Notes: generated by a model from the sequence alone, not told the origin. A DNA stretch of 64,000 nucleotides from Nitrosopumilaceae archaeon (GCA_965209085.1 OZ242376.1:512001-576000), one strand, 5' to 3'. Counted from the stretch's first letter, positions 2,241 to 64,000 are shown. A program made the numbers and translations.

Positions 2241-2303
2241 ACATAGTTTGAATAATTTATCAATTATAAATTAATAGACCGAGACTATGTATGAGGTCAG
2301 ATA

Positions 2304-2618
2304 TTAAACGATATTGAGCACCCCTTCAAAGACGCTCTTACCGTGTGCCTTCCATGTCAAAATACACGTTAGAAAGTTTGACATTCTCTTCATGGATTTA
2401 GATCCTCTGATCTGACCACTTATCTTACGGCGAACCACATCCCGCAATGCACACTCGGCAGCATTGTTTGTGGGCGGAATGTTTTCATGTTCAACAAATG
2501 CAAACAGAGTCCTCGCTGCATTTTCCAACCGTTTGATCAGACTCTGCATTCCGGACATTTCAAAACTGCGGTATCCATCCAACATGAGGTCAAATGTGTA
2601 TTCAAACGTGTGCCGCAC
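2304..2618 (-). pseudogene. IS66-family transposase, C-terminal fragment
   Basis: IPPTNNAAECALR..RRKISG motif; truncated. Confidence 0.8.
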
Positions 2619-2689
2619 TCTTGCATCACAATTGGCATTGTTTTTGGCATGACGTACTTGAATATGTCAAATCTAGAAAAGGACGAATC

Positions 2690-2875
2690 AGTTTAATTTA
2701 TCATCCATCGTATACGCCAGAGCTAAATCCGATAGAAATCCAGTGGCGCGTTTTACGAAAATGCATATAAAATGGACATTTTGAATCGATCAGACATATG
2801 AAAAAGAAAATTGACAGGGTCATACTGTCCAATCAGATGAAACTTGTCAAACTGCACGATTATCTAATTTTTTAG
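2690..2875 (+). pseudogene. IS630-family transposase C-terminal remnant
   Basis: PSYTPELNPIEIQWRVLRK from 2705 (IS630 PxYSPELNPIE motif), followed by an in-frame TAA. Confidence 0.7.
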
Positions 2876-3295
2876 AAATAATAATGTGGGTAATTGTTAC
2901 TATGGAGATTGTATTCGTTGTGTTTGTGATAAAATGTAAATTATAAATTCTTATACTATAGTTGTTGACTATATGTTAGAACATTATTTTTTAATTTTAC
3001 TATTCCAACATCATTATCGTATTTCCAAAAAAATCCCACATATAACATTCATAATCATATATTAAACTCATATTTGATCACTTGTATGTACGTAAACTTG
3101 TACTTTATCAATGTTTCCAATTTGTTATTTTAACAACGTTGATTTGGTATTGACTGCTATAGGCATAATTGTTTCCATTTCATTAACATTAACACCATTT
3201 TTGTTCATTTAGAACATTTTTGTTTAGTTCTGAGATCCATATTTCAAGTCAAACATGGGTCCTGATAACGCAACAGAATCTCCATTAAGCAATAT

Positions 3296-4409: not shown

Positions 4410-6923
4410 ATGAGACATCATGTGACCCCCATATCATATAATCTTGAATTTGAACCCGATCTTAAGAAATTCACATTTTCAGGCAAATCGAAAATTACTG
4501 CCAAATGCAACACGCCTACATCAAAGATCACGATGGATTGCGCAGAACTAAAGATACACTCCTGCAAGGTTTATGCGGGAAAAAAACCCATAAAATGTAC
4601 AGTAAAGACTGATGCAAAATCTGAAGATCTAACAATATCACTTGACACACGAGTATCCGGATCAGTATACATTGATCTTGAATTTTCAGGAATTTTAAAC
4701 GACCGCTTACTTGGATTCTACCGCAGTACGTACATGCAGGGTGGCAAAAAAAGATACATGGCTACCACCCAGTTTGAGGCAGCGGATGCACGGCGTGCAT
4801 TCCCCTGTTGGGATGAACCTGAAGCAAAGGCCACTTTTGAGATATCACTTGTTGCAAAAAATACCCACACTGCGGTATCAAACATGCCAATAAAATCAAA
4901 AAAGAATCTTGGAGGGGGAAGAATACTCTACAAGTTTGGAAAAACACCGGTAATGTCCACGTATCTTGTATATCTTGGAGTGGGCGAGTTTGAATACACT
5001 TCTGGAAAATACGGCAAAACACAGGTGCGTGTAATCACCACAAAGGGTCACAAGAAAAAAACTGCATACGCACTAGATCTTGGAAAACGACTGTTAAAAG
5101 AATATGATGAATATTTTGGAATAAAATACCCGTTACCAAAACTGGACCTAATCGCGATACCGGACTTTGCAGCAGGTGCCATGGAAAACTGGGGGGCAAT
5201 AACATTCCGCGAGACCATACTGTTGTATGATTCAAAAACATCTTCAACTAGGACAAAACAATACATTGCAGAGGTAATATCACACGAGATTGCACACCAG
5301 TGGTTTGGCAACCTTGTAACCATGCAGTGGTGGAACGATCTGTGGCTCAACGAGAGCTTTGCCACGTACATGGCCACAAAATTCGTCGACAAACTCTACC
5401 CAAAATGGCACATGTGGGATCAGTTTCTAGGCGATGCAATGGCAGTAGCCATGAATTTAGACTCGTTAAAATCATCCCATCCAATAGACGTAAAGGTAAA
5501 CAGCCCCTCTGAGATACGCGAGATATTTGATGCCATATCATACGATAAAGGAGGCTGTCTATTACTCATGCTGGAAGATTACGTGGGAGAGCCAAAGTTT
5601 CGTGCAGGATTGCGCAAATATCTTGCAAAACACAAGTATGCAAATGCAAAGGGCTCTGACCTATGGGATGAAATAGGCAAAGTCTCACACATGCCCGTGC
5701 GTAAAGTGATGGAATCTTGGATTGGCCAGATGGGATTTCCACTGGTGAGTGCAAAAAAATCCAAAAACCGCATAATGTTGCAGCAAAGCCGATTTTTACG
5801 TGACGGCAAGGCAGGCCCTGGTAAATGGCCCATACCTGTAACTGTCGGATTTGAAAAGGCTACCTCAAAAACACTCCTAACCGGTACAAAAGGTTCAGTA
5901 TCTGCACCCAAAGGTACACAGGGATATCTTGTAAACCATGGACGGCGGGGATTTTACCGCGTACGGTATGATGAAGAATCTGTTTTGGATCTAAAATATG
6001 CTGTCCAGACCAAAAAAATACCCCACGTTGACAGATGGGCGGTACAAAACGACATGCACGAGCTGTGCACACAGGGCTCCATCCCGATACGTGAATACTT
6101 GGATTTCTCTGATGCATATCTTGCTGAAACTTCAGCATTGGCCTCATCTGATGTTGCAGCAAATCTTGCCACCCTACACCGCAGATCCATAGGGGAATCA
6201 TTTGAACCGGTACTACGCAATTATGCAAGAAACTTTTTTGCACGAGCCCTTATGCGTCTTGGATGGGATCCAAAAAACAATGAATCAAACGAGGATGCAA
6301 TGCTGCGGGCTCAGGCAGTTTCGGCATTGATCAGACTTGGTGATACGCACGTACAGCAAGAAGCGGTGGCACGCTTTGAGAAATTTGTAAAAAAACCTGA
6401 CACACTGCCAGCTGACCTTCGTGAGCCCGTATACTCTGCATACGCCTGGGTTGTAAATTCTCCCGCAGCATATGCTAGACTTGCACGCATGTACAAAAAT
6501 GCCTTCTCACAGGAAGAGAAACAGCGATTCCTGTCATCTTTATGCTCGTTTAAGGATAAAAAACTACTCTTAAAGACGCTAAACTTTTCTCTGACACCGT
6601 CTGTGCGTTCGCAAAACATGCAGCTGCCGATAATGCGAATTGCTGCAAATCCGAATGGAAAAGAGATACTCTGGCCGTGGATTGGAAAAAACTGGAAAAA
6701 ATTATCATCCAAAGTAGGATGTGGCAACCCGATCTTAAACCGCATAGTCTCAAGTCTGTCTCTTGTGGCAGGATCCAAAGATGTGCCTGCAATCAGGGAG
6801 TTTTTCAGGAAAAATCCCACTCCTGGGACAGAGCGTTCACTGCGGCAGGTCTTTGAACGTATATCCATAAACGAGGCGTTTTTGAAGCGTGCAAGAATTG
6901 AATTTGGCGGCCGGAAATCTTGA
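4410..6923 (+). CDS. pepN: M1-family aminopeptidase
   Basis: GAMENWG and HEIAHQW...WLNE zinc motifs. Confidence 0.95.
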   Translation: MRHHVTPISYNLEFEPDLKKFTFSGKSKITAKCNTPTSKITMDCAELKIHSCKVYAGKKPIKCTVKTDAKSEDLTISLDTRVSGSVYIDLEFSGILNDRLLGFYRSTYMQGGKKRYMATTQFEAADARRAFPCWDEPEAKATFEISLVAKNTHTAVSNMPIKSKKNLGGGRILYKFGKTPVMSTYLVYLGVGEFEYTSGKYGKTQVRVITTKGHKKKTAYALDLGKRLLKEYDEYFGIKYPLPKLDLIAIPDFAAGAMENWGAITFRETILLYDSKTSSTRTKQYIAEVISHEIAHQWFGNLVTMQWWNDLWLNESFATYMATKFVDKLYPKWHMWDQFLGDAMAVAMNLDSLKSSHPIDVKVNSPSEIREIFDAISYDKGGCLLLMLEDYVGEPKFRAGLRKYLAKHKYANAKGSDLWDEIGKVSHMPVRKVMESWIGQMGFPLVSAKKSKNRIMLQQSRFLRDGKAGPGKWPIPVTVGFEKATSKTLLTGTKGSVSAPKGTQGYLVNHGRRGFYRVRYDEESVLDLKYAVQTKKIPHVDRWAVQNDMHELCTQGSIPIREYLDFSDAYLAETSALASSDVAANLATLHRRSIGESFEPVLRNYARNFFARALMRLGWDPKNNESNEDAMLRAQAVSALIRLGDTHVQQEAVARFEKFVKKPDTLPADLREPVYSAYAWVVNSPAAYARLARMYKNAFSQEEKQRFLSSLCSFKDKKLLLKTLNFSLTPSVRSQNMQLPIMRIAANPNGKEILWPWIGKNWKKLSSKVGCGNPILNRIVSSLSLVAGSKDVPAIREFFRKNPTPGTERSLRQVFERISINEAFLKRARIEFGGRKS

Positions 6924-31535: not shown

Positions 31536-31752
31536 ATGTGCATACAATGAATCGTATATTAACACAATAGACCGTCATAATCATTAGGCCTTATGCATAA
31601 TCAATCACTGAGACATACGGTTTCGACTATGACGCTGTCATGATCAAAGTACACATGGCCTAAAACCTTCAAGCAGACAACAAAATAAATCAAAATATCA
31701 TATGCATGACAAAAAGCAGAATATTATGCGTGACTGTATGCACAAAGATGTG

Positions 31753-32907
31753 CTACTTGATTTGAGCGCAAACTTTTTCCAACGGTTCGATATACTTGCG
31801 ATCCTTTAACATGATGTGCAGATTGGTCAGTCCTGTAACCACTTGGATTTCTGTATAAAACGCATCCATTGTATCATCATATACGGCACTCATTCTGCGG
31901 AACCATTTGAGCCGGTTTATGGCATGCTCTACTTTTATGCGCTTACGACTGATTCTCTTGCTGTATTCACGTTCCGTCTCTGTCAGCCCCTTACCCTTTG
32001 GTTTTTTGTACGGCTGCTTTGAGATAATGCCCCGATAGTCTTTTTCCACGGACAGATATCCCTTGTCAGTATATAGCATAATTTGGCGCTCTTTTTTTGT
32101 ATCAGAGTTTTTCATGCCATCGGTCCATTTGCCAAAATTTGGCGGATTACGCCGCAGTACCTCCATGTCATGTACTGAGCCCTCTTCAGGTCCGCCAATG
32201 TCAAGTACCAACCCGTCTTTGTTTGAGGTTATCTGTACGTTGTAGACGTGCCTCTTGCGCTTTCCAGAGTATACTACCTCTTGGTTTTCCTGCGGTCTTT
32301 GAACCTGTACAAACGTGGCATCAAGATACATCTCGCCGCCGCCTCTGCCGGGTACGAATTTTTTAAACAACTCGCTTGTACGTATTGTCCGTATTGCAGC
32401 ACCAATATTCTTAGCCGTTGGAAGAATATTCATCAACAATTCATCAGAAAAGGTCAGATATCTGCTGATGGTGCTCTGATCAACGCCTGCAATGGCCGCA
32501 AGCAATTCCTGTTTAGGATTGTTGCGTTTGCGGCACAGTGTGACAAACAAAATTTGAGATGCAGTGAGAATACAGGTGTTTCCAGGATCGTCGACATAAT
32601 CTGAAAAGCGGGGGACCTTGGGCGAATATTCGATAACTTTTTCAAACCGTTCCTGAATCCATTCAAACTCTTCACGGTTCATTCCAGTCGTCCCGTACAA
32701 ATAATTGTCATCATCAATTATGTGGTTCAAATATTCGTAGGCAGATTGTTGTTTTTCGACCTCATTATCATGTATCGTTTTTTTGTAGTGTTGAATTTCT
32801 GCTTCAAGCTTGGAGATCATCTCTGTTTGCTGGGCGATTATACGCTTGTCTGGGGCACACATGCTGTACGAATGTGATACTAGATCATAGATCTTTCGAT
32901 TTGTCAA
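31753..32907 (-). CDS. IS5-family (DDE_Tnp_4-type) transposase
   Basis: LDATFVQVQRP, YSGKRKRH, GSVHD, DKGY, RIKVEHAINRLK. Confidence 0.92.
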   Translation of the reverse strand: MTNRKIYDLVSHSYSMCAPDKRIIAQQTEMISKLEAEIQHYKKTIHDNEVEKQQSAYEYLNHIIDDDNYLYGTTGMNREEFEWIQERFEKVIEYSPKVPRFSDYVDDPGNTCILTASQILFVTLCRKRNNPKQELLAAIAGVDQSTISRYLTFSDELLMNILPTAKNIGAAIRTIRTSELFKKFVPGRGGGEMYLDATFVQVQRPQENQEVVYSGKRKRHVYNVQITSNKDGLVLDIGGPEEGSVHDMEVLRRNPPNFGKWTDGMKNSDTKKERQIMLYTDKGYLSVEKDYRGIISKQPYKKPKGKGLTETEREYSKRISRKRIKVEHAINRLKWFRRMSAVYDDTMDAFYTEIQVVTGLTNLHIMLKDRKYIEPLEKVCAQIK

Positions 32908-32930
32908 AATTGATTTTTTGGTTAATTATG

Positions 32931-45504: not shown

Positions 45505-45725
45505 AAATTCCAATTATGATAATACAATACTTCAATCTAAATTATGTAATATTATAATAGACCTTGTGCATATCAATCACTAAAACATACGATTCCGACT
45601 ATGACGCTGTCATGATCAAAGTACACATGGCCTAAAACCTTCAAGCAGACAACAAAATAAATCAAAATATCATATGCATGACAAAAAAACAGAATATTAT
45701 ACGTGATCGTGTGCACAAAGATGTG

Positions 45726-46877
45726 CTACTTGATTTGAGGGCAGACTTTTTCCAACGGTTCGATATACTTGCGATCCTTTAACATGATGTGCAGGTTGGT
45801 CAGTCCTGTAACCACTTGGATTTCTGTATAAAACGCATCCATTGTGTCATCATATATGGTACTCATTCTACGGAACCATTTGAGCCGGTTTATGGCATGC
45901 TCTACTTTTATGCGCTTACGACTGATTCTCTTGCTGTATTCGCGTTCTGTCTCTGTCAATCCTCTGCCCTTTGGTTTTTTGTACGGTTGCTTTGAGATAA
46001 TTCCAGGATAGTCTTTTTCCACGGACAAGTATCCCTTGTCAGTATATAGCATAATTTGTCGCTCTTTGTTTGTATCCGAATTTTTCATGCCATCGGTCCA
46101 TTTGCCAAAATTTGGCGGATTACGTCGCAGTACCTCCATGTCATGTACTGAACCCTCTTCGGGTCCGCCAATGTCAAGTACCAGCCCGTCTTTGTTTGAG
46201 GTTATCTGTACGTTGTAGACGTGCCTCTTACGCTTTCCAGAGTATACTACCTCTTGGTTCTCCTGCGGTCTTTGAACCTGCACAAATGTGGCATCAAGAT
46301 ACAGCTCGCCACCGCCCCTGCCTGATGCGAATTTTTTAAACGACTCGATGGTACGCTCTTCCCGTATCGCAGCACCAACATTCTTAGCCGTTGGAAGAAT
46401 ATTCATCAACAGCTCATCAGCAAATACCAGATATCTGCTGATGGTACTCTGATCAACGCCTGCAATGGCTGCAAGCATTTCCTGTTTGGGGTTATTGCGC
46501 TTGCGGCATAGTGCGACAAACAAAATTTGTGGTGCAGTAAGAATACAGGTGTTTCCCGGATCGTCGACATATTCTGAAAAGCGAGGGGTTTCTGGCGAGT
46601 CTTCAACGGCATTTATGAACCGTTTCTGAATCCATTCAAATTCTTCACGATCCATTCCAGTCATCCCGTATAGATAATTGTCATCATCAACCATATGGTT
46701 CAAGTATTCATAAGCAGATTGTTTTTCGGTCTTATCCCCATCTATCATTTTTTTGTAGCGTTGGTTTTCTGCTTCAAGTTTGGAGATTCTTTTTTCCAAC
46801 TTGGAGATTATACGTTTGTCTGTAGCACACATGCTGTGTGATTGTAATACTTGATCATAGATCTTTCGATTTGCCAA
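45726..46877 (-). CDS. IS5-family transposase (copy 2)
   Basis: Same DDE motifs as 31753-32907. Confidence 0.92.
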   Translation of the reverse strand: MANRKIYDQVLQSHSMCATDKRIISKLEKRISKLEAENQRYKKMIDGDKTEKQSAYEYLNHMVDDDNYLYGMTGMDREEFEWIQKRFINAVEDSPETPRFSEYVDDPGNTCILTAPQILFVALCRKRNNPKQEMLAAIAGVDQSTISRYLVFADELLMNILPTAKNVGAAIREERTIESFKKFASGRGGGELYLDATFVQVQRPQENQEVVYSGKRKRHVYNVQITSNKDGLVLDIGGPEEGSVHDMEVLRRNPPNFGKWTDGMKNSDTNKERQIMLYTDKGYLSVEKDYPGIISKQPYKKPKGRGLTETEREYSKRISRKRIKVEHAINRLKWFRRMSTIYDDTMDAFYTEIQVVTGLTNLHIMLKDRKYIEPLEKVCPQIK

Positions 46878-47668
46878 AATTGATTTTTTGGTTAATATGC
46901 ATAACCATATGTGAAGGGATCTTCTAAGACCACAGATGGTTGTAAGAATGTCAAACGATCCGTATCACCGAAACGTAAATCATCTAAAAAAGATCCAAAT
47001 GCAAACAAACAGATTACCACATATTCTGGGAAGAATATGTTTGTTGGAATGGACGTTCACAAGAAATTTCTTCAAGTTGCAATGATGGATAAAAAAGCCA
47101 AAGTGATTTTTAATGAGAGGATTGAAAATGAAAACAAGTCCATCAGCCGATTCTTCAGATCAAGTGTACCTGAAAATGCAAAAATCGTAATGGAATCTTC
47201 GTCCGTATGGTACGGATTATATCGATACATGACAGATAAAATGGGTTATGATGTCGTATTGTCAAATCCATGGGCGACAAAAATCATCGCCGCATCCAAG
47301 AAAAAGACCGACAAGAGGGATGCTGTAACACTTGCAGACCTATTACGGTGCGGATACATATCCCTCTGTCATGTCTCAAACAAGGACATAGTGGAACAAC
47401 GGCAACTTGTACGATATCGCGACAGTCTTGTCAAGACAAGAACAACTCTAAAAAACAAAATACATGGAATTTTGTTACAGGGAGGGATAAAGATCTTTGG
47501 AGCAACATTTACGCTTACATACAATAGAAAACTGCGTTCTCTAAAGGATTACCGTATAAACGGATATTTGGATTCTATTGGATTCGTTAATACAAAAATT
47601 GCAGACTCAAACATAAAAGTACACAACGCATCCTGTTCAAACAAGGATGCAATGTTGCTCAAGACAAT

Positions 47669-49068
47669 AGACCTCATGCATAATTAACTAAAAAATCAAT
47701 TTTGGCAAATCGAAAGATCTATGATCTAGTATCATGTGAGCATAGCATGTGCAAATCAGACAAACGCATGATCTCTAAACTGGAAAAGACGATCTTAAAG
47801 ATGGAAAAGACGATCCTAAAGATGGAAAAGAATAGCTCCAGGCAGGAATCAGAAATTCAACACTACAAAAAGATGGCACAGAGTAGCAATGATGACAAAA
47901 GACAACATGTCGATAAATATTTGAACAAGGGAATTGGGAATGATGTTCATCTATATGAAATGACAGGAATGAACCGTGAAGAATTTGAATGGATTCTAGA
48001 ACGGTTCAAAAAAACCGTAGAAAATTCATCAGAGATTCCCCGCTTTTCAGAATATGTGGACGATCCTGGAAACACCTGTATCCTTACCGTAAAGCAAGTT
48101 TTGTTTATCGTATTGTGCCGCAAACGCAATAATCTCAAACAGGGAGCACTTGCGTTCATTGCAGACGTTGATCAGAGCACCATTAGCAGATATCTGACAT
48201 TTTCTGATGAACTATTGATGGATATTCTTCCAACGGCTAAGAATATTGGTGCTGCAATACGGACAATACGTACAAGCGAGTTGTTTAAAAAATTCGTACC
48301 CGGCAGAGGCGGCGGCGAGCTATATCTTGATGCCACGTTTGTACAGGTTCAAAGACCGCAGGAGAATCAAGAAACAGTATACTATTCTGGAAAGCGCAAA
48401 AGGCACGTCTACAGCATACAGATAACCTCCAACAAAGATGGAGTGGTAAATGACATTGGCGGTCCAGAAGAGGGCTCAGTACATGACATGGAGGTACTGC
48501 GGCGTAATCCGCCAAATTTTGGCAAATGGACCGATGGCATGAAAAACTCTGATACAAAAAAAGAGCGCCAAATTACACTCTACACCGACAAGGGATACTT
48601 GTCCGTGGAAAAAGACTATCCTGGAATTATCTCAAAGCAGCCATACAAAAAACCAAAGGGTAGGGGATTGACAGAGACAGAACGCGAATATAGCAAGAGG
48701 ATCAGTCGTAAGCGCATAAAAGTAGAGCATGCCATAAACCGGCTCAAATGGTTTCGCAGAATGAGTGCCGTATATGATGACACAATGGATGCATTTTATA
48801 CAGAAATCCAAGTGGTTACAGGACTGACCAATCTGCACATCATGTTAAAGGATCGCAAGTATATCGAACCGTTGGAAAAAATTTGCCCTCAAATCAAGTA
48901 GCACATCTTTGTGCACACGGTTACGCATAATATTCTGCTTTTTGTCATGCATATGATATTTTGATTTATTTTGTTGTCTGCTTGAAGGTTTTAGGCCATG
49001 TGTACTTTGATCATGACAGTGTCATAGTAGGAACCGTATGTCTTTGCAGTTGATTATGCATGAACTCT
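47669..49068 (+). mobile_element. ISL2-like element, copy 3 (1400 bp, intact)
   Basis: TIRs AGACCTCATGCATAAT / ATTATGCATGAACTCT; 3-bp TSD AAT. Confidence 0.95.
47702..48901 (+). CDS. IS5-family transposase (copy 3)
   Basis: DDE motifs; 21-bp N-terminal tandem duplication (EKTILKM). Confidence 0.93.
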   Translation: MANRKIYDLVSCEHSMCKSDKRMISKLEKTILKMEKTILKMEKNSSRQESEIQHYKKMAQSSNDDKRQHVDKYLNKGIGNDVHLYEMTGMNREEFEWILERFKKTVENSSEIPRFSEYVDDPGNTCILTVKQVLFIVLCRKRNNLKQGALAFIADVDQSTISRYLTFSDELLMDILPTAKNIGAAIRTIRTSELFKKFVPGRGGGELYLDATFVQVQRPQENQETVYYSGKRKRHVYSIQITSNKDGVVNDIGGPEEGSVHDMEVLRRNPPNFGKWTDGMKNSDTKKERQITLYTDKGYLSVEKDYPGIISKQPYKKPKGRGLTETEREYSKRISRKRIKVEHAINRLKWFRRMSAVYDDTMDAFYTEIQVVTGLTNLHIMLKDRKYIEPLEKICPQIK

Positions 49069-49560: not shown

Positions 49561-49650
49561 GACTGGAAACAAACACATAGCGAAAGCCATACCGCATGAC
49601 ACAAAAAAGCAAGAAACCTTTAAAAAGTATTCACATGGATAAACTCTATT

Positions 49651-49853
49651 GAACCGTTGGAAAAAGTCTGCCCTCAAATCAAGTAGCACATCTTTGTGCA
49701 CACGGTCACGCATAATATTCTGCTTTTTGTCATGCATGTGACATTTTGATTTATTTTGTTGTCTGCTTGAAGGTTTTAGGCCATGTGTACTTTGATCATG
49801 ACAGTGTCATAGTAGGAACCGTATGTCTCAGGGATTGATTATGCATGAACTCT
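49651..49853 (+). mobile_element. 3'-end fragment of the ISL2-like element
   Basis: Matches 48866-49068 including the TIR ATTATGCATGAACTCT. Confidence 0.88.
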
Positions 49854-52132: not shown

Positions 52133-52255
52133 AGAGTTTATGCATAATCAATCGCAGAAACATACGATTCCAACTATGGCATTACCATGATCAAAACGCA
52201 TATGGTGTAAAGTTCTCAAACAGACAACAAAATAAATCAAAATGCCACATGCATG
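52133..52255 (-). mobile_element. Decayed ISL2-like right end
   Basis: AGAGTTTATGCATAATCAA...CAGACAACAAAATAAATCAAAAT matches 60803-60920. Confidence 0.8.
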
Positions 52256-56726: not shown

Positions 56727-57566
56727 TTGAAATTAATTCACGCAAGTATGGATCATGGAAGGTACGAACAAAGAGGGATCACAGAGCCCCGAAAAATAGA
56801 AGGCAATGACGGAAACATTTATGCTGTAAAATTTTCCCCTGCAGATGAACCTGACTCGAACTACAATAGAGCGTATGCATAATGGGTCAAATTCACAATT
56901 TTTACGAATAAAAATGATCGATTTGAATGATTATGCATACGGTCTAATGAATGGCTCGGATCATTGCTGGCTTTAAAATTAGGTGTGGAAGTATTGGAAC
57001 CATTTGTGATGATATTTGATAACGACTTTGTATCAAACTCTAAAGAAATCCAAGATAGTGGAATACGTGCTGGAGCATATTTTGCCACTTTGTATCAACA
57101 TGACAAATACAATTTAAGCGAGTATCTTAATGATGCATCAACCATCAGTAATCTTGAATCAGTTAACGCATTTATAATATTTGACATATTTGTTAATAAT
57201 CGTGATAGGCATGACAGAAACACCATGCTCATACCCAATGCAAAAGCTATTGGATCGCATTACAAATATGTGCTAATCGATCATGGACGCTGTTTTAGAA
57301 TCACAGAGGGAGATTTGCCGTATGAACAACCAAAAATTGAATGGAATACGTCATGTGTTGACACATACAAATTACATGAAAAAATAAACTTTGTTATGGG
57401 GATGGCAACTTTAAATTTACTAGAGTGTATTTTTACCGAAATTGATAAACATGTTAAACGCCCGGCACATGTCGATATGTTGCAAAATGCTCTCATTACC
57501 CGTGATCCTGGAGATATAATGTCAATTATTGACAAGTATTATGGGCATTTACTCGGAGGCCAATAA
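56727..57566 (+). pseudogene. HipA-like Ser/Thr kinase interrupted by a MITE
   Basis: GITEP...DGNIYAVK...YN|EWLGSLLA..LG, FD.FVNNRDRH..N, IDHG; 252 aa when the 81-bp insert is removed. Confidence 0.88.
56868..56945 (+). mobile_element. 78-bp MITE with ISL2-like TIRs
   Basis: AGAGCGTATGCATAAT...ATTATGCATACGGTCT; TSD AAT on both sides. Confidence 0.93.
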
Positions 57567-58341
57567 ATTGGAAACTTATAATTTTTCAATTGCACGGTTT
57601 ATTCCAGATTTAATACGTGATGAGCCAATTAACATTGGTACAATAATAAATGATAGCAAATCAAACACTAGTTTTGGGAAATTTGTTGACATTCATACTA
57701 TTAAAAGCAAAACTGATGCTCCTTTTAATACCAATATGTTAAAACACGTATTAGAAAAATTAGATGGTAGAAAAGAAAAATTGATAGATTTAAAATCTAT
57801 ATCATCAACATTTTCAGGTAGGCTGTCATTCACATCTCCAAGAGCTGTAAAAAACAAAAATATTGACGATGCGATGAATCGGGTTTTTGATCAGTATGTG
57901 AGCATTATAAAACATGGTCCAATACGTGATAATGTTCTGTTACAGAACATCAAAGATCGGATTTCTGAATCAATCCGACCTGAATTCATACATGAGCATT
58001 ACACTATAGGTAATCGACCTTATTCGTTTAAAGTGGATGTTGGAATACTCTCCAATTCAGTCAAGAGTTTTATTCACATATTACATTACGTTAATCCAGA
58101 AGCTCTATTGAAAGATTGTTTGTTCCAGGCAAATTGTCTACAAAAATTACGTACTAGCAATTATGAAAATGAAAAAATGAATTCATGCATAATTCATGAC
58201 ATTCCAGAAAATGCTAGTGAGCCTATGGCACGTGCTTGTAATGATGGTATCGGGCAATTAAAAGAGGCAGGATGTAAGATATATGGATCAGATAATAAAA
58301 ATAAATGCGTGGATGCACTCATATCTGTCCATGCTTCATAA
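57529..58341 (+). CDS. DUF3037-domain protein
   Basis: YNFSIARFIPDLIRDEPINIG...FTSPR...F..YV; start likely TTG 57568. Confidence 0.85.
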   Translation: MTSIMGIYSEANKLETYNFSIARFIPDLIRDEPINIGTIINDSKSNTSFGKFVDIHTIKSKTDAPFNTNMLKHVLEKLDGRKEKLIDLKSISSTFSGRLSFTSPRAVKNKNIDDAMNRVFDQYVSIIKHGPIRDNVLLQNIKDRISESIRPEFIHEHYTIGNRPYSFKVDVGILSNSVKSFIHILHYVNPEALLKDCLFQANCLQKLRTSNYENEKMNSCIIHDIPENASEPMARACNDGIGQLKEAGCKIYGSDNKNKCVDALISVHAS

Positions 58342-58975
58342 AATAGTTGATTCACCATCTTCCATTTTCTCATAAATATGTCAGTATGTGGATGCACTAA
58401 CATCAAATTTCAACATGATCCACCATTTTTATTTTATTTGCTCTTTTAATTACAAATATGTCATTACCATGGAATTTAATCCGATATGGTTCATTTTCTA
58501 TCATACGTTTTTCATCGTAAAATATGTATTCTATACCATCATTAATTTCTACACGAACGGGCAGTTTCCAAGTAATCGAATCGTTTTGAGGTGCATTCTG
58601 TGGGGTGGTGGTATGAAGTCACGTCATGCCTGAAATCTACGCAATAAATGAAGATGTAGGCACAAAATAGCACAAGATGCTGACCTTGTACAGGGGCAGC
58701 TCTTCTCTTATCTAAAATGTAGTTTACCCTCACTTGATTGGAACAATTTGAAAATACCGGTGCCCGGCATTTGCAAAAAAAATGCCAAAACCTGGCAAAA
58801 GTGTTATTGATATGTAAACTTGGGGAAAATATGATGCAAAGTATGGGGTATACTACTTTTGATATGCCACACGCAAAACTTGTGATAAGGTTCTGTAAAC
58901 TTATCGGTGCATAGGCGTGGATATGGATCTTCTCTGAATTGATTGTTTTATATGTTGGAATATGAGTTAAAAATT

Positions 58976-59194
58976 ATGAGTGATTTATTGGATATTGATC
59001 GGATAGTTCCAGAACTGCCAGAAGGTTCACGTATGGATATGGTAGAGTGGGCAAATATGTTAGATGTTAAATTGCGAACATTAGATGGTCGTATAAATAG
59101 TGCATTTCAGTACCGAGATAAAAGATATAACCAATTACAAGAATTGATTTCTACCATAGAAAAAGAAATTGATGATTTGAAAAAAAGACCATAA
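58976..59194 (+). CDS. Small coiled-coil passenger protein 1
   Basis: ATG 58976 with TTTTATAT ~25-30 bp upstream; EW motif and heptads. Confidence 0.7.
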   Translation: MSDLLDIDRIVPELPEGSRMDMVEWANMLDVKLRTLDGRINSAFQYRDKRYNQLQELISTIEKEIDDLKKRP

Positions 59195-59205
59195 TAAAAT
59201 TTATC

Positions 59206-59243
59206 AAAAAGTGATCATTTTTTGAGTAAGATCAATAAAGGGG
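59206..59243 (+). promoter_or_regulatory. 38-bp repeated upstream element, copy 1
   Basis: 35/38 identical to 59544-59581; ends 18 nt before ATG. Confidence 0.75.
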
Positions 59244-59261
59244 CATATTTTAAAATACATT

Positions 59262-59498
59262 ATGAGTTTAGCAGCTACTGTCCCAAATGAAGCACCAAAT
59301 TGGTTTAGAGAGTGGGCAAAGGGTATGGATAGAGATACAATATTTGGAACTGCGATATTAGAACAATCGGACTATACATTGGAAAGTGTAAAGAGGGATT
59401 TTGGAAATTTTAATACACGAATGGATAAAATGGATAAAGATATTTTAGAGATAAAAGATGATATAAAAACTATAAAGAAATTGTTGACTAATAAATAA
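59262..59498 (+). CDS. Small coiled-coil passenger protein 2
   Basis: EW motif and heptad C-terminus. Confidence 0.75.
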   Translation: MSLAATVPNEAPNWFREWAKGMDRDTIFGTAILEQSDYTLESVKRDFGNFNTRMDKMDKDILEIKDDIKTIKKLLTNK

Positions 59499-59543
59499 TT
59501 TATCGGTTTTATTCAGGTTCTGCAAATCATCTATGGATTGACA

Positions 59544-59581
59544 AAAAAGTGATCTTTTGTTGAGTTAGATCAATAAAGGGG
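59544..59581 (+). promoter_or_regulatory. 38-bp repeated upstream element, copy 2
   Basis: AAAAAGTGATC-N13-GATCAATAAAGGGG; ends 18 nt before ATG. Confidence 0.75.
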
Positions 59582-59599
59582 TAGATTGCATGATGTAGT

Positions 59600-59890
59600 A
59601 TGAGTAGATTAGATGAAATAAAATCTGTAAAAGATGTTACTGAACGTGATATACAAGAGTGGTGTGGCGATTTACGAAAACATGATGATAAGGCGTTTAA
59701 ATATATTGGTTGGTTGTTTTGGGTTCATCACGATTTTCTGAAATCGGGGTTTGAAGAAACGAAAGTTGCTATTAAAGAAATGAAAGATGATATTGAAAAA
59801 GTGAATGATAAATTGGTTAGTATGGATTCAAGGTTTGACAGCATGGATTCAAAATTGGATTCCATAAATGAAAAATTAGAAAAGTTGTAA
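59600..59890 (+). CDS. Small coiled-coil passenger protein 3
   Basis: EW motif; SMDSRFD SMDSKLD SINEKLE heptads. Confidence 0.75.
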   Translation: MSRLDEIKSVKDVTERDIQEWCGDLRKHDDKAFKYIGWLFWVHHDFLKSGFEETKVAIKEMKDDIEKVNDKLVSMDSRFDSMDSKLDSINEKLEKL

Positions 59891-60802
59891 TGCAATTATT
59901 CATACGTATGCAAACTAGCATTTTGTATCAAAGTTTGCCATTTGTTTAATCCAGCAACCTTAATGTTTGAAGCTTCAGCAGGCGTTTTGCCACCAAGTCC
60001 TATGTGTTTTTTAGTGTAATTGTAAAATGCTTGATAGCCACCGATCAAAGGGGTATCGGATTTTTTCAAACCTCTAAATGCCAATTCACGATCTCTGAAT
60101 GTACCGTTAAACCGTTCCATTTTATTATTATTACGATCCTTACGTAAATGGATATGTGAATGATGTTCCGTATCTTTACCAAATACACGTTTAGATGATT
60201 TGGCGTATGCAGGAAGTCCGTCAGTTGTAAAATGTTTAGGCGATTTGCCTATGGCATTTTTTGTGAGCTCTAATAGACGATCTGCATTATGTTGGAATTT
60301 TGTATCTGTCATGTCATAAGCAAGGAAATAACGGGTTTGATCATCTATGGAAGCAAAAAGATATTTTTTCTGACCTGATACTTTGAGCCATACTTCATCA
60401 GCTCTAACCCATGTACGATCAGCGGTTCTTGGAATGATCTCATTTAGGTATTTTTCAACCATACGAGAATATTTGGCAATCCATTTGTAAACTGCCATGT
60501 GGGATATTTTAATTCCCATCATCTCATAATGGTTGGCAATATCACGGACTGACATACCCGTGAAATACATTTGCATAGCTCCAGTAATAGTAGAGGGTAA
60601 AACACGGGTATTTTCAAAGCCAAAGTTTGTTGTAAAAATTTTGGTACATTCTTGGCATTGATACTTTTGAAGTTTGCCGTGCCTATTGGTTCTATAACCA
60701 CGTTTACGTAAATTACCCGAACTGCAATATTTGCATAGGTTGAGCTTTGATCGTTCCATGATTTTAAATTCATTATTGGCATATCCACGATTTTGTTTTA
60801 TT

Positions 60803-62199
60803 AGAGTTCATGCATAATCAACTGCAAAGACATACGGTTCCTACTATGACACTGTCATGATCAAAGTACACATGGCCTAAAACCTTCAAGCAGACAACAA
60901 AATAAATCAAAATATCATATGCATGACAAAAAGCAGAATATTATGCGTAACCGTGTGCACAAAGATGTGCTACTTGATTTGAGGGCAAATTTTTTCCAAC
61001 GGTTCGATATACTTGCGATCCTTTAACATGATGTGCAGATTGGTCAGTCCTGTAACCACTTGGATTTCTGTATAAAACGCATCCATTGTGTCATCATATA
61101 CGGCACTCATTCTGCGAAACCATTTGAGCCGGTTTATGGCATGCTCTACTTTTATGCGCTTACGACTGATCCTCTTGCTATATTCGCGTTCTGTCTCTGT
61201 CAATCCCCTACCCTTTGGTTTTTTGTACGGCTGCTTTGAGATAATTCCAGGATAGTCTTTTTCCACGGACAAGTATCCCTTGTCGGTGTAGAGTGTAATT
61301 TGGCGCTCTTTTTTTGTATCAGAGTTTTTCATGCCATCGGTCCATTTGCCAAAATTTGGCGGATTACGCCGCAGTACCTCCATGTCATGTACTGAGCCCT
61401 CTTCTGGACCGCCAATGTCATTTACCACTCCATCTTTGTTGGAGGTTATCTGTATGCTGTAGACGTGCCTTTTGCGCTTTCCAGAATATACTGCCTCTTG
61501 ATTCTCCTGCGGTCTTTGAACCTGTACAAACGTGGCATCAAGATATAGTTCGCCGCCGCCTCTGCCGGGTACGAATTTTTTAAACAACTCGCTTGTACGT
61601 ATTGTCCGTATTGCAGCACCAATATTCTTAGCCGTTGGAAGAATATCCATCAATAGTTCATCAGAAAATGTCAGATATCTGCTAATGGTGCTCTGATCAA
61701 CGTCTGCAATGAACGCAAGTGCTCCCTGTTTGAGATTATTGCGTTTGCGGCACAATACGATAAACAAAACTTGCTTTACGGTAAGGATACAGGTGTTTCC
61801 AGGATCGTCCACATATTCTGAAAAGCGGGGAATCTCTGATGAATTTTCTACGGTTTTTTTGAACCGTTCTAGAATCCATTCAAATTCTTCACGGTTCATT
61901 CCTGTCATTTCATATAGATGAACATCATTCCCAATTCCCTTGTTCAAATATTTATCGACATGTTGTCTTTTGTCATCATTGCTACTCTGTGCCATCTTTT
62001 TGTAGTGTTGAATTTCTGATTCCTGCCTGGAGCTATTCTTTTCCATCTTTAGGATCGTCTTTTCCATCTTTAAGATCGTCTTTTCCAGTTTAGAGATCAT
62101 GCGTTTGTCTGATTTGCACATGCTATGCTCACATGATACTAGATCATAGATCTTTCGATTTGCCAAAATTGATTTTTTAGTTAATTATGCATGAGGTCT
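60803..62199 (-). mobile_element. ISL2-like element, copy 4 (1397 bp, intact)
   Basis: TIRs as copy 3; TSD ATT on both sides. Confidence 0.95.
60970..62166 (-). CDS. IS5-family transposase (copy 4)
   Basis: Nearly identical to 47702-48901. Confidence 0.93.
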   Translation of the reverse strand: MANRKIYDLVSCEHSMCKSDKRMISKLEKTILKMEKTILKMEKNSSRQESEIQHYKKMAQSSNDDKRQHVDKYLNKGIGNDVHLYEMTGMNREEFEWILERFKKTVENSSEIPRFSEYVDDPGNTCILTVKQVLFIVLCRKRNNLKQGALAFIADVDQSTISRYLTFSDELLMDILPTAKNIGAAIRTIRTSELFKKFVPGRGGGELYLDATFVQVQRPQENQEAVYSGKRKRHVYSIQITSNKDGVVNDIGGPEEGSVHDMEVLRRNPPNFGKWTDGMKNSDTKKERQITLYTDKGYLSVEKDYPGIISKQPYKKPKGRGLTETEREYSKRISRKRIKVEHAINRLKWFRRMSAVYDDTMDAFYTEIQVVTGLTNLHIMLKDRKYIEPLEKICPQIK

Positions 62200-62420
62200 A
62201 TTATCTTTATAATGACATGAATATGTTTACAGTCGGATTTGCGGTATTGATGATCAGGGCATTCGCATACAAGACCGTTTCCAGTCCTAGAGACCGTATA
62301 GTATTTGTCGGGCGTGGACATGGATTTTACTTTGAATGTGTGGGTATCGGTTTGAGTTATTGCATTTGCCGTTTCTAGTATTTGGTTTGCTTGTTGTTTG
62401 CGTGTATTCATACAGTTGGT

Positions 62421-62482
62421 ATTAAGAGTACGCTTAATATATGTATCTGTTAATAGTACGCTTAATTAAGAGATCGCTTAAT
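62421..62482. promoter_or_regulatory. Three 18-bp imperfect palindromes (ATTAAG-N6-CTTAAT) in a divergent promoter region
   Basis: ATTAAGAGTACGCTTAAT (62421), GTTAATAGTACGCTTAAT (62449), ATTAAGAGATCGCTTAAT (62465). Confidence 0.7.
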
Positions 62483-62511
62483 TAATATGGTAATAGGTTA
62501 TTGCACCGTGT

Positions 62512-62682
62512 ATGACACGGTGGAAAAAAGATGAGACGGAATTTACAGTCAGCTTATCACATGACGGTGGGCTTGGAATGATTGCACGCATACCTAAACC
62601 AATTAGGGAAGAGTTGGGCAATCCTACCAAGATTAAATTTCTAAAGTATAAGGGTAAAATATTAGTAGATTCTGGAGATTAA
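62512..62682 (+). CDS. 56-aa AbrB/SpoVT-like DNA-binding protein
   Basis: MTRWKKDETEFTVSLSHDGGLGMIARIPKPIREELGNPTKIKFLKYKGKILVDSGD; below the ORF-track cutoff. Confidence 0.7.
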   Translation: MTRWKKDETEFTVSLSHDGGLGMIARIPKPIREELGNPTKIKFLKYKGKILVDSGD

Positions 62683-62688
62683 AACGGT

Positions 62689-62829
62689 TCATAGAATTTT
62701 GCGATCACGGATAAGGCGTGTGCAATATTCAAGACCATGACTGCGATTTCTAAATATTCCCGATTTTACCTGTTTGTCAATCCATCTTAAGATTTCAGCT
62801 TCTATGGATATGGCGATCTTATGCTTCAC
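62689..62829 (-). CDS. 46-aa ribbon-helix-helix protein
   Basis: MKHKIAISIEAEILRWIDKQVKSGIFRNRSHGLEYCTRLIRDRKIL (GTG start). Confidence 0.72.
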   Translation of the reverse strand: MKHKIAISIEAEILRWIDKQVKSGIFRNRSHGLEYCTRLIRDRKIL

Positions 62830-62884
62830 ATGGTACAGTATGACTAGGTATGATTAAAATACGGTATGATAAAGTCATACTTTT

Positions 62885-63262
62885 GTGAGTGCAGTTAAGG
62901 GATTTCTAGCAGGGGGGTTTACAGTATTTGTATTTTTTATCATAGTATTGACAGGTTTTGCACTAGATTCAGATATTGAATATACGAATGATTCAGGTAT
63001 TGCCCATACGAATGAATTAAACCATACGGATAGAGCAGTACTGATAAAATTAGCTCAAAACTGTTATGGCAGAGATACTGATTGCTATGTAAAAAATTTG
63101 GGGTATGGGTTGGATAATAATGATAAATACATAATAGAATCATGGACAAATACTTGTCAGACATTTAGCAAATATCAATATGATCGTTGCTGGAGTATAG
63201 ATAGCGAGGATGCTGGCATAATTACTAGCATACGAAATATGCACTTAAAAGCGGAAAAATGA
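62885..63262 (+). CDS. Membrane-anchored Cys-containing hypothetical passenger protein
   Basis: N-terminal TM segment; four Cys. Confidence 0.65.
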   Translation: MSAVKGFLAGGFTVFVFFIIVLTGFALDSDIEYTNDSGIAHTNELNHTDRAVLIKLAQNCYGRDTDCYVKNLGYGLDNNDKYIIESWTNTCQTFSKYQYDRCWSIDSEDAGIITSIRNMHLKAEK

Positions 63263-63372
63263 CGATTTTTGGTTGATTTGGTTGATCGCTATTTATGGTC
63301 AAATATGCACCGATAAGTTTACAGAACCTGTGATAAAATACTATATAACCCAGCATGATTTGAATTAATTAA

Positions 63373-64000
63373 ATGCCCCCCATGGTCATTACAAGCCAAG
63401 ATAAATGGCTTTTAACCCTGATTGGCTCTACGCCATATGTTAGAGGTATTACAAGATTACAAAAATATGGTATTCTAGTATACGAGGGAATTTTTAACAA
63501 TTCTGAATTTTTTGATGATTGGCAATCCGGCAAGTATGGAATGGTTAGTCGACAATTAGCAGCTAGTTTGGAAAAACTTGAAAATGAGGGATATGTTGCA
63601 GCATATGATACTTTTGATCTAGATAAAAAACGAGTTAAAAATTATATTTTGACGTATATTGGTACGATATTGAAAAATAAATGGATTGTGAATAATACAG
63701 ATATTGCTATAAAAGTTGCACATGTTGCAACCGCATATTTTAACACGCCACTGGAAGAATTATTGGCAGATATATGTGAAAAATTCCCAGAGTTTACAAA
63801 AAGCACCATCGGTGCCAAAGTTAGAAAAGAAATGATGGGTGAGACATCATTACTTGATTCTGAATTTAATTTTCAAAATGAAAAAAATAATCCTGTAAAA
63901 TCATCAATTTCCATAAAAAAACATGTGTTTAACGATAAAGACTTTAGATTAAAGCTTGCAAAATCTATAGGATATGATGAAATTCTCCCTCTTGACCCGG
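63373..64000 (+). CDS. SocA/Panacea (DUF4065)-like wHTH protein (runs off window end)
   Basis: Hand translation: GITRLQKY...W...YG..S..L...L..L...G.V...Y.LT..G...LEELL..I..KFPEFT.S. Confidence 0.7.
   Translation, partial: MPPMVITSQDKWLLTLIGSTPYVRGITRLQKYGILVYEGIFNNSEFFDDWQSGKYGMVSRQLAASLEKLENEGYVAAYDTFDLDKKRVKNYILTYIGTILKNKWIVNNTDIAIKVAHVATAYFNTPLEELLADICEKFPEFTKSTIGAKVRKEMMGETSLLDSEFNFQNEKNNPVKSSISIKKHVFNDKDFRLKLAKSIGYDEILPLDP

Follow-up and report, generated by a model that had tools for sequence, protein, structure and literature searches.

A probable cargo-carrying unit transposon of the IS6 branch in a Nitrosopumilaceae archaeon

Do the small genes lying on both sides of an interrupted transposase gene in a Nitrosopumilaceae archaeon (GCA_965209085.1) belong to one transposon, and if so, to which family? 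Within the window, i.e., the whole 64,000-nt stretch of DNA that was analysed (OZ242376.1:512001-576000), we read this locus, with a probability of roughly 85%, as a 3,040-bp unit transposon ("transporter IS") of an archaeal IS6/IS26 branch that has two divergent core genes and was disabled by an IS5-like insertion. The element is real and recently mobile, and the cargo-carrying archaeal IS6 branch to which it belongs is apparently undescribed. Its features are as follows (window positions; codon scores are log-odds, which in true genes have a mean of 0.251 and a 5th percentile of 0.079).

58881-58888, no strand: left copy of the target-site duplication (TSD), TGTGATAA, read directly from the sequence; same as 63329-63336
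58889-58913, plus: left terminal inverted repeat (TIR), GGTTCTGTAAACTTATCGGTGCATA, read from the sequence; 25 nt, 100% complementary in the twin copy
58943-59194, plus: cc1, coiled-coil ORF, 83 aa from TTG (in-frame ATG at 58976); codon score 0.196, best of six frames
59262-59498, plus: cc2, coiled-coil ORF, 78 aa; codon score 0.292, best frame
59600-59890, plus: cc3, coiled-coil ORF, 96 aa; codon score 0.244, best frame
59896-60803, minus: 3' part of the transposase gene, residues ~70-371 (Zn ribbon, HTH, DDE); tblastn 99%
60804-62198, minus: nested IS5-like insertion, 1,395 bp; TATTA on both sides (60799-60803 and 62199-62203)
60970-62166, minus: transposase of the nested IS, 398 aa, DDE_Tnp_4; Pfam 72.7 bits against a cut-off of 24.8
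62199-62411, minus: 5' part of the transposase gene, residues 1-~70, SWIM-type CxCx9CxH
62412-62511, no strand: 100-bp divergent control region of the transposase and AbrB-like genes, with a 28-nt tandem repeat
62512-62682, plus: AbrB/MazE-like protein, 56 aa, divergent from the transposase gene; codon score 0.241, best frame
62689-62829, minus: possible RHH ORF, 46 aa, weak; codon score 0.058, not the best frame
62885-63262, plus: mem, cargo, 125 aa; codon score 0.205, best frame
63304-63328, minus: right TIR, exact reverse complement of the left TIR
63329-63336, no strand: right TSD copy, TGTGATAA, read directly from the sequence

The perfect 25-bp TIRs and the 8-bp TSD named in the original prediction can both be read directly at these ends, and the ORFs that it listed are all present (83, 78 and 96 aa on the plus strand, the split transposase on the minus strand, then 56 aa plus, 46 aa minus and 125 aa plus). 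From TIR to TIR, this copy (copy A) spans 4,440 bp and comprises the 3,040-bp transposon and the nested 1,395-bp insertion. In a scan of the 1.69-Mb genome, the TIR 25-mer occurred five times exactly and three times with two to three mismatches; the reversed pattern, used as a control, had no occurrences.

A genome-wide TIR search, as had been proposed, revealed a second TIR-bounded copy in the same genome (copy B; G000:C1:1312905-1315944). This twin lacks the nested IS and measures 3,040 bp, in line with the predicted ~3.0 kb, and its transposase ORF is uninterrupted and has the 371 aa predicted for the "repaired" protein. Nested IS aside, copies A and B differ by seven substitutions end to end, and their similarity ends exactly at the inverted ends, beyond which the flanks are unrelated. 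The TIR-to-TIR unit moved whole, passengers together with the transposase. Because the entire 3,040 bp moved as one unit, the predicted unit transposon with passengers on either side of the transposase holds; passengers that lie inside the ends and move with the transposase, here in two copies at unrelated sites, are what define a transporter IS or unit transposon. Copy B has no TSD (flanks TGATATCA and AAGAATCG), which might be taken to mean that segmental duplication or recombination, not transposition, produced the pair and that the inverted ends are incidental. An intramolecular event is compatible with the missing TSD but not proven by it, and the duplication scenario, which we consider scarcely credible, is already contradicted by the data: in both copies the similarity runs precisely up to the 25-bp inverted ends and no further, the 8-bp TSD of copy A is perfect, and 19 relatives combine the same end motif with perfect 8-bp TSDs, compared to 0 of 310 shuffled controls.

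Transposition of the whole unit also led to the expectation of an empty TGTGATAA site in relatives, and none was found in 40 relatives or in the contigs of four runs. Among the 40 relatives, the left flank had no real DNA match, with one genome showing a weak match to its 81-bp repeat, and the right-flank gene was found in only two, without synteny there. The TIR-to-TIR joint was absent from the contigs of the four runs.

The transposase contains, from N to C terminus, a SWIM-type zinc finger, a 4-Cys zinc ribbon, an HTH and an IS240-type DDE domain. C49, C51, C61, H63, C93, C96, C119, C122, D205, D264, E299 and R306 are invariant in 38 of 38 aligned transposases, and also in all 18 of a smaller clade set. 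Together, D205, D264, E299 and R306 (E+7) form the DDE-then-K/R arrangement of IS6 transposases (PMC7986276). In an AF2 model (pLDDT 85.6), CxC lies on a strand and CxH at the start of a helix, and the top folds are DDE transposases and integrases (ISCth4, E 1e-6). Of the SWIM/zinc-ribbon/DDE architecture originally claimed, the invariant CxCx9CxH, the 4-Cys ribbon and the DDE+R stand; the signature C49-x-C51-x9-C61-x-H63 is present in 38 of 38 transposases, but Pfam SWIM (PF04434) scores only 12.8-15.8 bits, below its gathering score of 19.6, and at E ≤ 0.01 matches two of 18 relatives (best 2.3e-7). As judged from these alignments, the protein is an IS6-like transposase in which the predicted catalytic residues and zinc ligands are all conserved.

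Several lines of evidence support the claimed IS6/IS240 grouping. First, Pfam DDE_Tnp_IS240 scores 58.1 bits against a cut-off of 27 (60.4 bits for the 3' fragment), and the suggested profile search with the repaired 371-aa protein returned NCBIfam transpos_IS6 as the best family (116.3 bits over profile positions 1-201 of 202, short of the curated cut-off of 125). Second, both models match 18 of 18 clade members (best 1.2e-22 and 1.4e-40, respectively). Third, a plasmid tblastn gave 565 records, the best of them annotated ISCpe7/IS6 (residues 75-356, 28.6%, E 4e-20); among the plasmid matches listed, every best one is annotated IS6 or ISCpe7, and the closest annotated relatives belong to the zinc-finger-bearing clostridial ISCpe7 group. 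Fourth, the TSD is 8 bp, as in the IS6 family, in 20 of 20 TSD-bearing elements. It is conceivable that the element instead belongs to another zinc-finger-bearing DDE family, either IS1 (its long archaeal forms included) or IS1595, and that its IS6 character is resemblance only. Among the NCBIfam families, IS1 ranks second (63 bits, with 15 of 18 clade members matched, best 1.5e-19); the N-terminal zinc-domain model of IS1/IS1595 matches 11 of 18 clade members and Pfam Zn_ribbon_InsA two of 18. IS1 ends share the form GGnnnTG, and long elements with passengers are known from IS1595 and from an archaeal subgroup of IS1. However, the score of the IS6 model is about double that of IS1 and its match extends end to end, the IS1595 model is matched by only three of 18 clade members and weakly, the best plasmid matches listed carry IS6 or ISCpe7 annotation throughout, and the consistent 8-bp TSD and the R at +7 after DDE are IS6-style. 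We therefore regard this alternative as highly improbable.

Assigned to IS6, the element has the sequence-model matches, the DDE+K/R residues, the short GG-tipped TIRs and the 8-bp TSD of the family, and departs from the classical IS6 size and single ORF in having 3,040 bp and seven ORFs. IS6 elements are about 0.7-0.9 kb long, with clades h and i reaching 1.76 kb (PMC7986276). Their ends combine a GG tip with a cTGTt motif over 15-20 bp according to the available part of that review; by contrast, the TIRs here, perfect over 25 bp, start with GGTTCTGTAAAC..., in which GG and CTGT are present and the motif reads CTGTA rather than CTGTT. In the available text of Varani et al. 2021 (PMC7986276), clades h (ISCpe7-type, Clostridia) and i have, like the window element, an HTH and DDE(+K/R) transposase that bears a CxxC zinc finger at its N terminus, and GG-tipped ends with CTGT; they are bacterial and 1.2-1.8 kb long, and in clade i a further N-terminal domain is added. 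In the window transposase, the extra N-terminal domain is the SWIM-type CxCx9CxH finger, which lies outside the ISCpe7 alignment. Elements of clades h and i are known as single-gene elements, whereas the window element is archaeal, 3.04 kb long and has seven ORFs. In addition, its divergent AbrB-like partner gene is conserved, and no such gene is mentioned for IS6 in the available part of PMC7986276. The only IS6-family "tIS" named in that part is ISDsp3 of Dehalococcoides sp. BAV1, which also carries a passenger inside its ends. However, ISDsp3 is a single-copy element with one passenger, while the window element has five passengers plus a regulator, exists in two copies and belongs to an entire clade of 1.9-6.8 kb elements with changing cargo.

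We found 19 further relatives with TIRs and a perfect 8-bp TSD (1,855-6,770 bp) and with differing passengers; they come from Nitrosopumilaceae, a single Bathyarchaeia-labelled MAG, metagenomes and viral contigs. The TIR-pair finder returned 18 elements with a perfect 8-bp TSD in 62 loci, compared to none in 310 shuffled loci. By Pfam, the cargo of the relatives includes N6_N4_Mtase, CfrBI endonuclease, type I M and S subunits, Eco57I/MmeI-type, Dam, DUF3800 and NurA, and many of these elements have restriction-modification genes aboard. Passenger genes vary among relatives, cargo carriage is common in this transposase clade, and the window element is no one-off. The relatives would ferry restriction-modification genes among related archaea. 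A survey of thaumarchaeal IS (Krupovic et al. 2019; PMC6563490) covers DDE insertion sequences of ammonia-oxidising archaea, to which the present element is similar in this respect; in its available part, such elements have "typically 1 or 2 genes" and passenger-carrying transposons are described as undetected in archaea, and "IS6" as a whole word is absent from its main text.

Two micro-regulators had been predicted within the element. One, the AbrB-like gene, was recovered but is better placed in the core than in the cargo. Because its homologues are divergent neighbours of the transposase gene in 12 of 12 loci with a match, we regard it as a conserved core partner of the transposase rather than a passenger. 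In five of 18 elements, this position is taken by another small gene (F3) that is not detectably related to the AbrB-like one. The 56-aa protein had no Pfam or NCBIfam match, and its profile no sequence match in the PDB; with its AF2 model (pLDDT 75), the top Foldseek hits were MazE, AbrB-N, VapB and SpoVT, with MazE at probability 0.99, TMq 0.68 and a non-significant E of 0.16. The equivalent small gene of one relative (L071), which aligns weakly to the 56-aa profile, matches Pfam MazE_antitoxin at 28.9 bits against 24.7. In the control region, the 28-nt tandem repeat (62422-62477) contains AGTACGCTTAAT twice, and its repeat score is reached by only one of 200 shuffles. Equivalent but different repeats are present in eight of 11 relatives; altogether, the repeats exceed shuffles in nine of 12 regions, and in the other three no repeat above chance was detected by this test. 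The AbrB-like gene and repeated control-region motifs are conserved features of the clade, the repeats being element-specific and putatively operator-like. Tn3-family transposons carry toxin-antitoxin pairs beside their transposition genes (available part of bioRxiv 10.1101/848275), and the window element similarly has a small AbrB/antitoxin-type gene inside the transposition module and not among the passengers; however, its transposase is of another family, and no toxin partner is visible in it.

The second predicted regulator, the RHH gene, exists as a 46-aa ORF, but its assignment is weak: NCBIfam ParD scores 17.7 bits (E 0.0027), below the cut-off of 46.2, MazE and NikR score lower, PDB MazE9 matches over the full length at E 1.2, Pfam gives no match, other clade loci have no homologue, and codon usage lends no support. 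The three coiled-coil genes and the membrane protein of the original prediction, by contrast, are present as ORFs that each score best in their own frame. cc1 to cc3 are tandemly duplicated coiled-coil genes, and a 69-nt block upstream of cc2, start codon included, recurs before cc3 at 78% identity. Mem has a hydrophobic N-terminal segment and a Cys-containing C-terminal part.

This cargo has almost no relatives, and could be filler, i.e., decaying or spurious ORFs without function that a two-gene IS drags along. cc3 has no homologue but itself in 5.8 billion proteins, and its atlas matches, all to generic archaeal coiled-coil clusters, do not exceed 0.84; mem has one homologue at 79% plus fragments, three matches including itself among 1.84 billion representatives, and none in 300 other family genomes; Pfam, NCBIfam and PADLOC give nothing above thresholds for any cargo ORF, the Pfam coiled-coil matches of cc1 being sub-threshold; the RHH ORF is not in the best-scoring frame; and, from our reading of the translations, at least four of the seven differences between copies A and B change an amino acid, with two such changes in the transposase and one each in cc1 and mem. 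However, cc1, cc2, cc3 and mem score 0.196-0.292 in their own frames, inside the true-gene range, cc2 and cc3 share the conserved upstream block with its start codon, and the mem ORF is open over its full length in the 79%-identical relative, making wholly non-functional cargo unlikely. Slightly less likely still is that the passengers act as a module for defence or addiction in which, for instance, the RHH-like regulator and the membrane protein would stabilise the transposon as a toxin-antitoxin-like or abortive-infection pair. This idea draws on the restriction-modification systems, DUF3800 and NurA carried by clade relatives, on the occurrence of clade members on viral contigs, on the weak resemblance of the RHH-like ORF to RHH antitoxins and on its divergence from mem over 55 bp with short repeats. 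It is opposed by the PADLOC search, in which no model matched any of the six small proteins, by the lack of a detectable toxin domain in the passengers, by an RHH assignment under every threshold and by the restriction of the RHH/mem module to this genome.

For the unit transposon that we favor, we suggest that the 25-bp ends are bound by the 371-aa transposase and that insertion occurs with an 8-bp stagger, possibly by a cointegrate or conservative route as known for IS26. The AbrB-like protein would bind the repeats between the divergent promoters and set the expression of the transposase and of itself. Of the passengers, the three tandem coiled-coil genes lie to one side, and the RHH-like and membrane-protein genes to the other as a divergent pair. 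The IS5-like insertion probably disabled copy A later, at transposase codon ~70. Because the ends are identical, copy A could be mobilised in trans by its twin, and would now move only by means of the transposase of that intact copy.

The nested IS5 of the original prediction is confirmed as an IS5-like 1,395-bp element with a TATTA duplication. Its transposase has NCBIfam IS5 as the best model (60.2 bits, below its cut-off of 140), and the element shows the features of the IS5 family, i.e., a DDE_Tnp_4/DDE_Tnp_1 transposase, inverted ends, a short TSD and multiple copies. The ends are imperfect over 20 bp (GAGTTCATGCATAATCAACT and GACCTCATGCATAATTAACT), and the genome contains six full copies at ≥99%, counting that in the window, and 23 full-length copies at ≥81%.

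Here, we identify the element in the window as a genuine cargo-carrying IS6-like transposon that has been recently mobile. It consists of a 3,040-bp unit interrupted by a nested IS5-like insertion. The perfect 25-bp inverted repeats and 8-bp target duplication that the original prediction had placed at 58881-63336 were both read directly in the sequence. The principal features are as follows.

58881-58888: left 8-bp target duplication, TGTGATAA (direct sequence reading)
58889-58913: left terminal inverted repeat, 25 bp, GGTTCTGTAAACTTATCGGTGCATA (direct sequence reading)
60804-62198: nested IS5-like (DDE_Tnp_4) element, 1,395 bp, flanked by the 5-bp duplication TATTA
62422-62477 (within 62412-62511): control-region repeat, AGTACGCTTAAT repeats
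62512-62682, plus strand: AbrB-like gene, 56 aa
63304-63328: right inverted repeat, exact reverse complement of the left end (direct sequence reading)
63329-63336: right 8-bp target duplication, TGTGATAA once more

The 25-mer end GGTTCTGTAAACTTATCGGTGCATA has five exact sites and three sites with 2-3 mismatches in the 1.69-Mb single-contig genome, in which a reversed control pattern has none. Every ORF named in the original prediction was found: ORFs of 83, 78 and 96 aa (the small coiled-coil ORFs cc1, cc2 and cc3), 56 aa and 125 aa (the membrane-protein ORF mem) on the plus strand, and a split transposase and a 46-aa RHH-like ORF on the minus strand, with a 398-aa DDE_Tnp_4 transposase occupying the centre. 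An Rfam search of 57500-64000 returned nothing at E ≤ 1.

A second copy in the same genome (G000:C1:1312905-1315944, on the contig that also holds the window) proves the mobility of the whole unit. The original prediction implied that other copies bounded by these ends should exist, and this twin spans 3,040 bp between identical perfect ends. Alignment with the window copy covers 1-1915 and 1911-3040; thus, the window copy is the twin unit plus the 1,395-bp insertion at 60804-62198. Once the insertion is taken out, 7 positions distinguish the two copies; their flanks are unrelated, and similarity ends at the inverted ends. The twin encodes an unbroken transposase, so that the repaired 371-aa protein predicted from the window exists intact, and it was searched with HMM models. 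No target duplication was found at the twin, which is flanked by TGATATCA and AAGAATCG. An older, truncated relative of the element has its degenerate end 122 bp away from the twin. Four solo or decayed left ends are present in the genome. At L011:3520-3938 (G000:C1:1079520-1079938), a solo left end matches the end of the window element perfectly over 28 bp. Next to it come a different coiled-coil ORF, of 113 aa, and then fragments of another transposase; the locus represents either a recombinant or a truncated sister element that bears other cargo.

An empty TGTGATAA site, which the original prediction had expected in relatives, was found neither in 40 relatives searched by flanks nor in the contigs of four sequencing runs. 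DNA of the left flank had no real match in the 40 relatives, matching only through an internal 81-bp repeat; 2 of the 40 have the right-flank protein, with no left-flank protein nearby. The contigs of the four runs contain no TIR-to-TIR joint; they contain a 60798->62199 joint, which is the form of the twin copy, and, in one run and at low depth (5.39, side 24), a 58183->63929 joint that lies off the element ends. The genes around the insertion (window 57529-58341 and 63373-64000) are poorly conserved, and this, together with the density of IS elements, suggests that the window element sits in a variable genomic island.

The transposase groups with IS6/IS240, as had been predicted. It matches Pfam DDE_Tnp_IS240 with 58.1 bits (cut-off 27), and its best NCBIfam family is transpos_IS6 (116.3 bits over positions 1-201 of the 202-position profile, below the curated cut-off of 125), followed by IS1 with 63 bits. 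Among 72,556 plasmids, 565 records matched, every one with <60% identity; the best are clostridial proteins annotated "IS6-like element ISCpe7 family transposase" (query residues 75-356, 28.6%, E 4e-20), and the remaining matches, among those listed, are IS6-annotated or without annotation. According to the sections of an IS6 review cited here, ISCpe7-type elements are in a clostridial IS6 group with an N-terminal CxxC zinc finger, and a further IS6 clade has an extra N-terminal domain (PMC7986276). Conservation was assessed in an alignment of 38 clade members and in a set of 18 sequences (one row of alignment A4 is an unpublished sequence, L053 from genome G092). Across the 38 members, and likewise across the 18, C49, C51, C61 and H63 (CxCx9CxH) are invariant, as are C93, C96, C119 and C122 and D205, D264, E299 and R306. 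Because Pfam SWIM scores 12.8-15.8 on the transposase, below its threshold of 19.6, and matches just 2 of 18 relatives at E ≤ 0.01 (best 2.3e-7), we call the putative zinc finger SWIM-type by signature and not by model. For the transposase, AF2 modelling from the 38-sequence alignment (pLDDT 85.6, pTM 0.85) gives DDE transposases and retroviral integrases as the top structural matches, with ISCth4 at E 1e-6; none of the matches listed is named as an IS6 transposase. The same genome encodes two distant paralogs of the transposase (L009:2423-4048 and L010:676-1884), one (541 aa) carrying a pair of SWIM-type fingers and extended at its C-terminus, the other 402 aa long. A search for inverted ends around each found none, so both may be domesticated or old copies.

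The overall reading as a cargo-carrying IS6-like transposon holds, except that the AbrB-like gene is core machinery and not cargo. The 56-aa protein is the only one of the window's six small proteins with relatives in other loci, and in 12 of 12 distinct loci from 10 genomes (40-59% identity) its gene lies beside the start of the transposase gene in divergent orientation. Sequence models found nothing in this protein, and a profile run against PDB sequences gave chance-level matches only. Its AF2 model (pLDDT 75) has MazE, AbrB-N, VapB and SpoVT as top Foldseek matches (prob 0.99, TMq 0.68), with E-values that are not significant (best 0.16). At locus L071, a small gene at the equivalent position passes Pfam MazE_antitoxin, and in five elements this position is held by another small family, F3, with no detectable relationship to the AbrB-like family. 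The spacers between the transposase and AbrB-like genes are 51-118 bp long and contain repeated 11-16-nt motifs, often ~28 bp apart, that vary from element to element; in 9 of 12 spacers, though not in the other three, the best 12-mer pair was matched by ≤7 of 200 shuffles. We infer that the AbrB-like protein would act as a repressor on operators lying between the divergent promoters. Together with the element-specific repeats beside the transposase promoter, this protein would make up a simple regulatory module.

Of the passenger genes, cc1, cc2 and cc3 are tandem duplicates; a repeated 69-nt block that includes the start codon precedes both cc2 and cc3 (78%), and other repeats recur with a period of 312-338 bp. 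By host codon usage, the own frame is best for cc1, cc2, cc3, the AbrB-like gene and mem (0.196-0.292 per codon, where true genes average 0.251); the RHH-like ORF scores 0.058, and its own frame is not best. No Pfam, NCBIfam or PADLOC match to the cargo exceeded its threshold, no defence model matched, and Atlas look-alikes of the cargo proteins were all below 0.9. A word-based homolog search returned one relative of mem (79%) and none of cc3; a full HMMER scan for mem gave three matches, itself included, and mem was found in none of 300 family genomes searched. Between the RHH-like ORF and mem lies a 55-bp spacer (window 62830-62884) that contains two occurrences of GGTATGAT as well as an 8-bp inverted repeat (GTATGACT / AGTCATAC). 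This spacer could act as another small divergent control region.

The window element belongs to a widespread clade whose members ferry accessory genes. Relatives of its transposase at E ≤ 1e-10 are present in 137 of 301 sampled Nitrosopumilaceae genomes and 20 of 27 genera, a count in which seven genomes are unpublished and the genome of the window itself is included. Fetched loci were scanned for GG-tipped inverted ends with a perfect 8-bp duplication. This gave 18 pairs by script and one by eye at L062, the closest relative (transposase 79% identical), and these 19 bounded elements come from the loci that remain after the many with just 1.5 kb of flank or contig ends. In a control of the finder, 62 loci yielded 18 duplication-bearing pairs and 310 shuffled loci yielded none. 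The bounded elements measure 1,855-6,770 bp (median 3,294 bp); five further inverted-end pairs have no duplication (L051, 1,420 bp; L067; L076; L095; L098). Their sources are family genomes, one MAG labelled Bathyarchaeia (L013; a 5,569-bp element, transposase identity 43%), two metagenome contigs and three IMG/VR viral contigs, and unpublished genomes contribute none. A metagenome scan found distant relatives only (32-37%). Among the genes carried by elements of the clade are those for N6_N4 methylases (in one case as a fusion with an Mrr-like nuclease), a CfrBI-type endonuclease, type I M and S subunits, Eco57I/MmeI-type enzymes, a Dam-type methylase, DUF3800, NurA and a proteasome-like protein.

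At L063:6920-14810 (genome G185), two clade members of 4,573 and 3,294 bp, with transposases 62% and 41% identical to the window's, lie back to back. Three copies of TGTTTTAG are present, one on each outer side and one at the junction of the two elements. The second insertion thus struck the duplicated target of the first exactly, which hints at a target preference. The elements on the viral-classed contigs (L094:3558-6141, L096:3641-6577 and L097:2769-7608) have inverted ends and perfect 8-bp duplications. Because these bounded members lie inside viral-classed contigs, viruses or proviruses may carry clade transposons between hosts.

IS6/IS26 elements are regarded as minimal insertion sequences with one gene, known to move resistance genes only when a pair of them flanks a segment. 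By contrast, in this clade, as shown by the window element and its 19 bounded relatives, single IS6-like units, and not flanking pairs, carry 0.7-5.6 kb of extra genes, many of them for restriction-modification. The cited sections of the IS6 review describe ends with GG tips and a cTGTt motif and sizes up to 1.76 kb, and name a single passenger-bearing member, ISDsp3, with one passenger gene (PMC7986276). A 2019 thaumarchaeal survey, in the portions cited, reports IS with one or two genes and passenger-gene transposons as undetected in archaea; the word "IS6" is absent from its main text (PMC6563490). Literature searches, exclusive of supplements and ISfinder, found no description of the clade. 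A broader model has a probability of roughly 0.55: ammonia-oxidising archaea, neighbouring lineages and some of their viruses would host a large undescribed IS6 branch, in which a SWIM-finger transposase and an AbrB-like repressor acting on element-specific operators form a general shuttle for restriction-modification and accessory genes, an archaeal counterpart of bacterial unit transposons. If so, the coiled-coil and RHH/membrane cargo of the window would be new accessory or defence modules spread by the clade. The clade itself provides a tangible means of gene flow and of turnover of defence islands in ammonia-oxidising archaea, which are abundant and ecologically important. To our knowledge, these archaea lack a genetic tool; the intact twin, if active, could be developed into one.

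The nested IS5-like element is present in the genome in six full copies at ≥99% identity (this one included) and 23 full-length copies at ≥81%. It is expanding in this genome, with further window copies at 47670-49067, 45567-46902 and 31593-32930 and fragments near 49647-49852 and 52134-52255, and several copies lie within or beside relics of the IS6-like transposon. The 81-bp repeat at window 58611-58691 also occurs in L024-L031 and in L009 at ~6640-6720, with at least 12 occurrences in the genome; it is MITE-like in appearance, with 11-bp inverted ends (GTATGAGGTCA...TGACCTCATAC), and has no match in Rfam. The nested IS5-like element has a right end similar to the GAGGTC tip of this repeat and might mobilise it.
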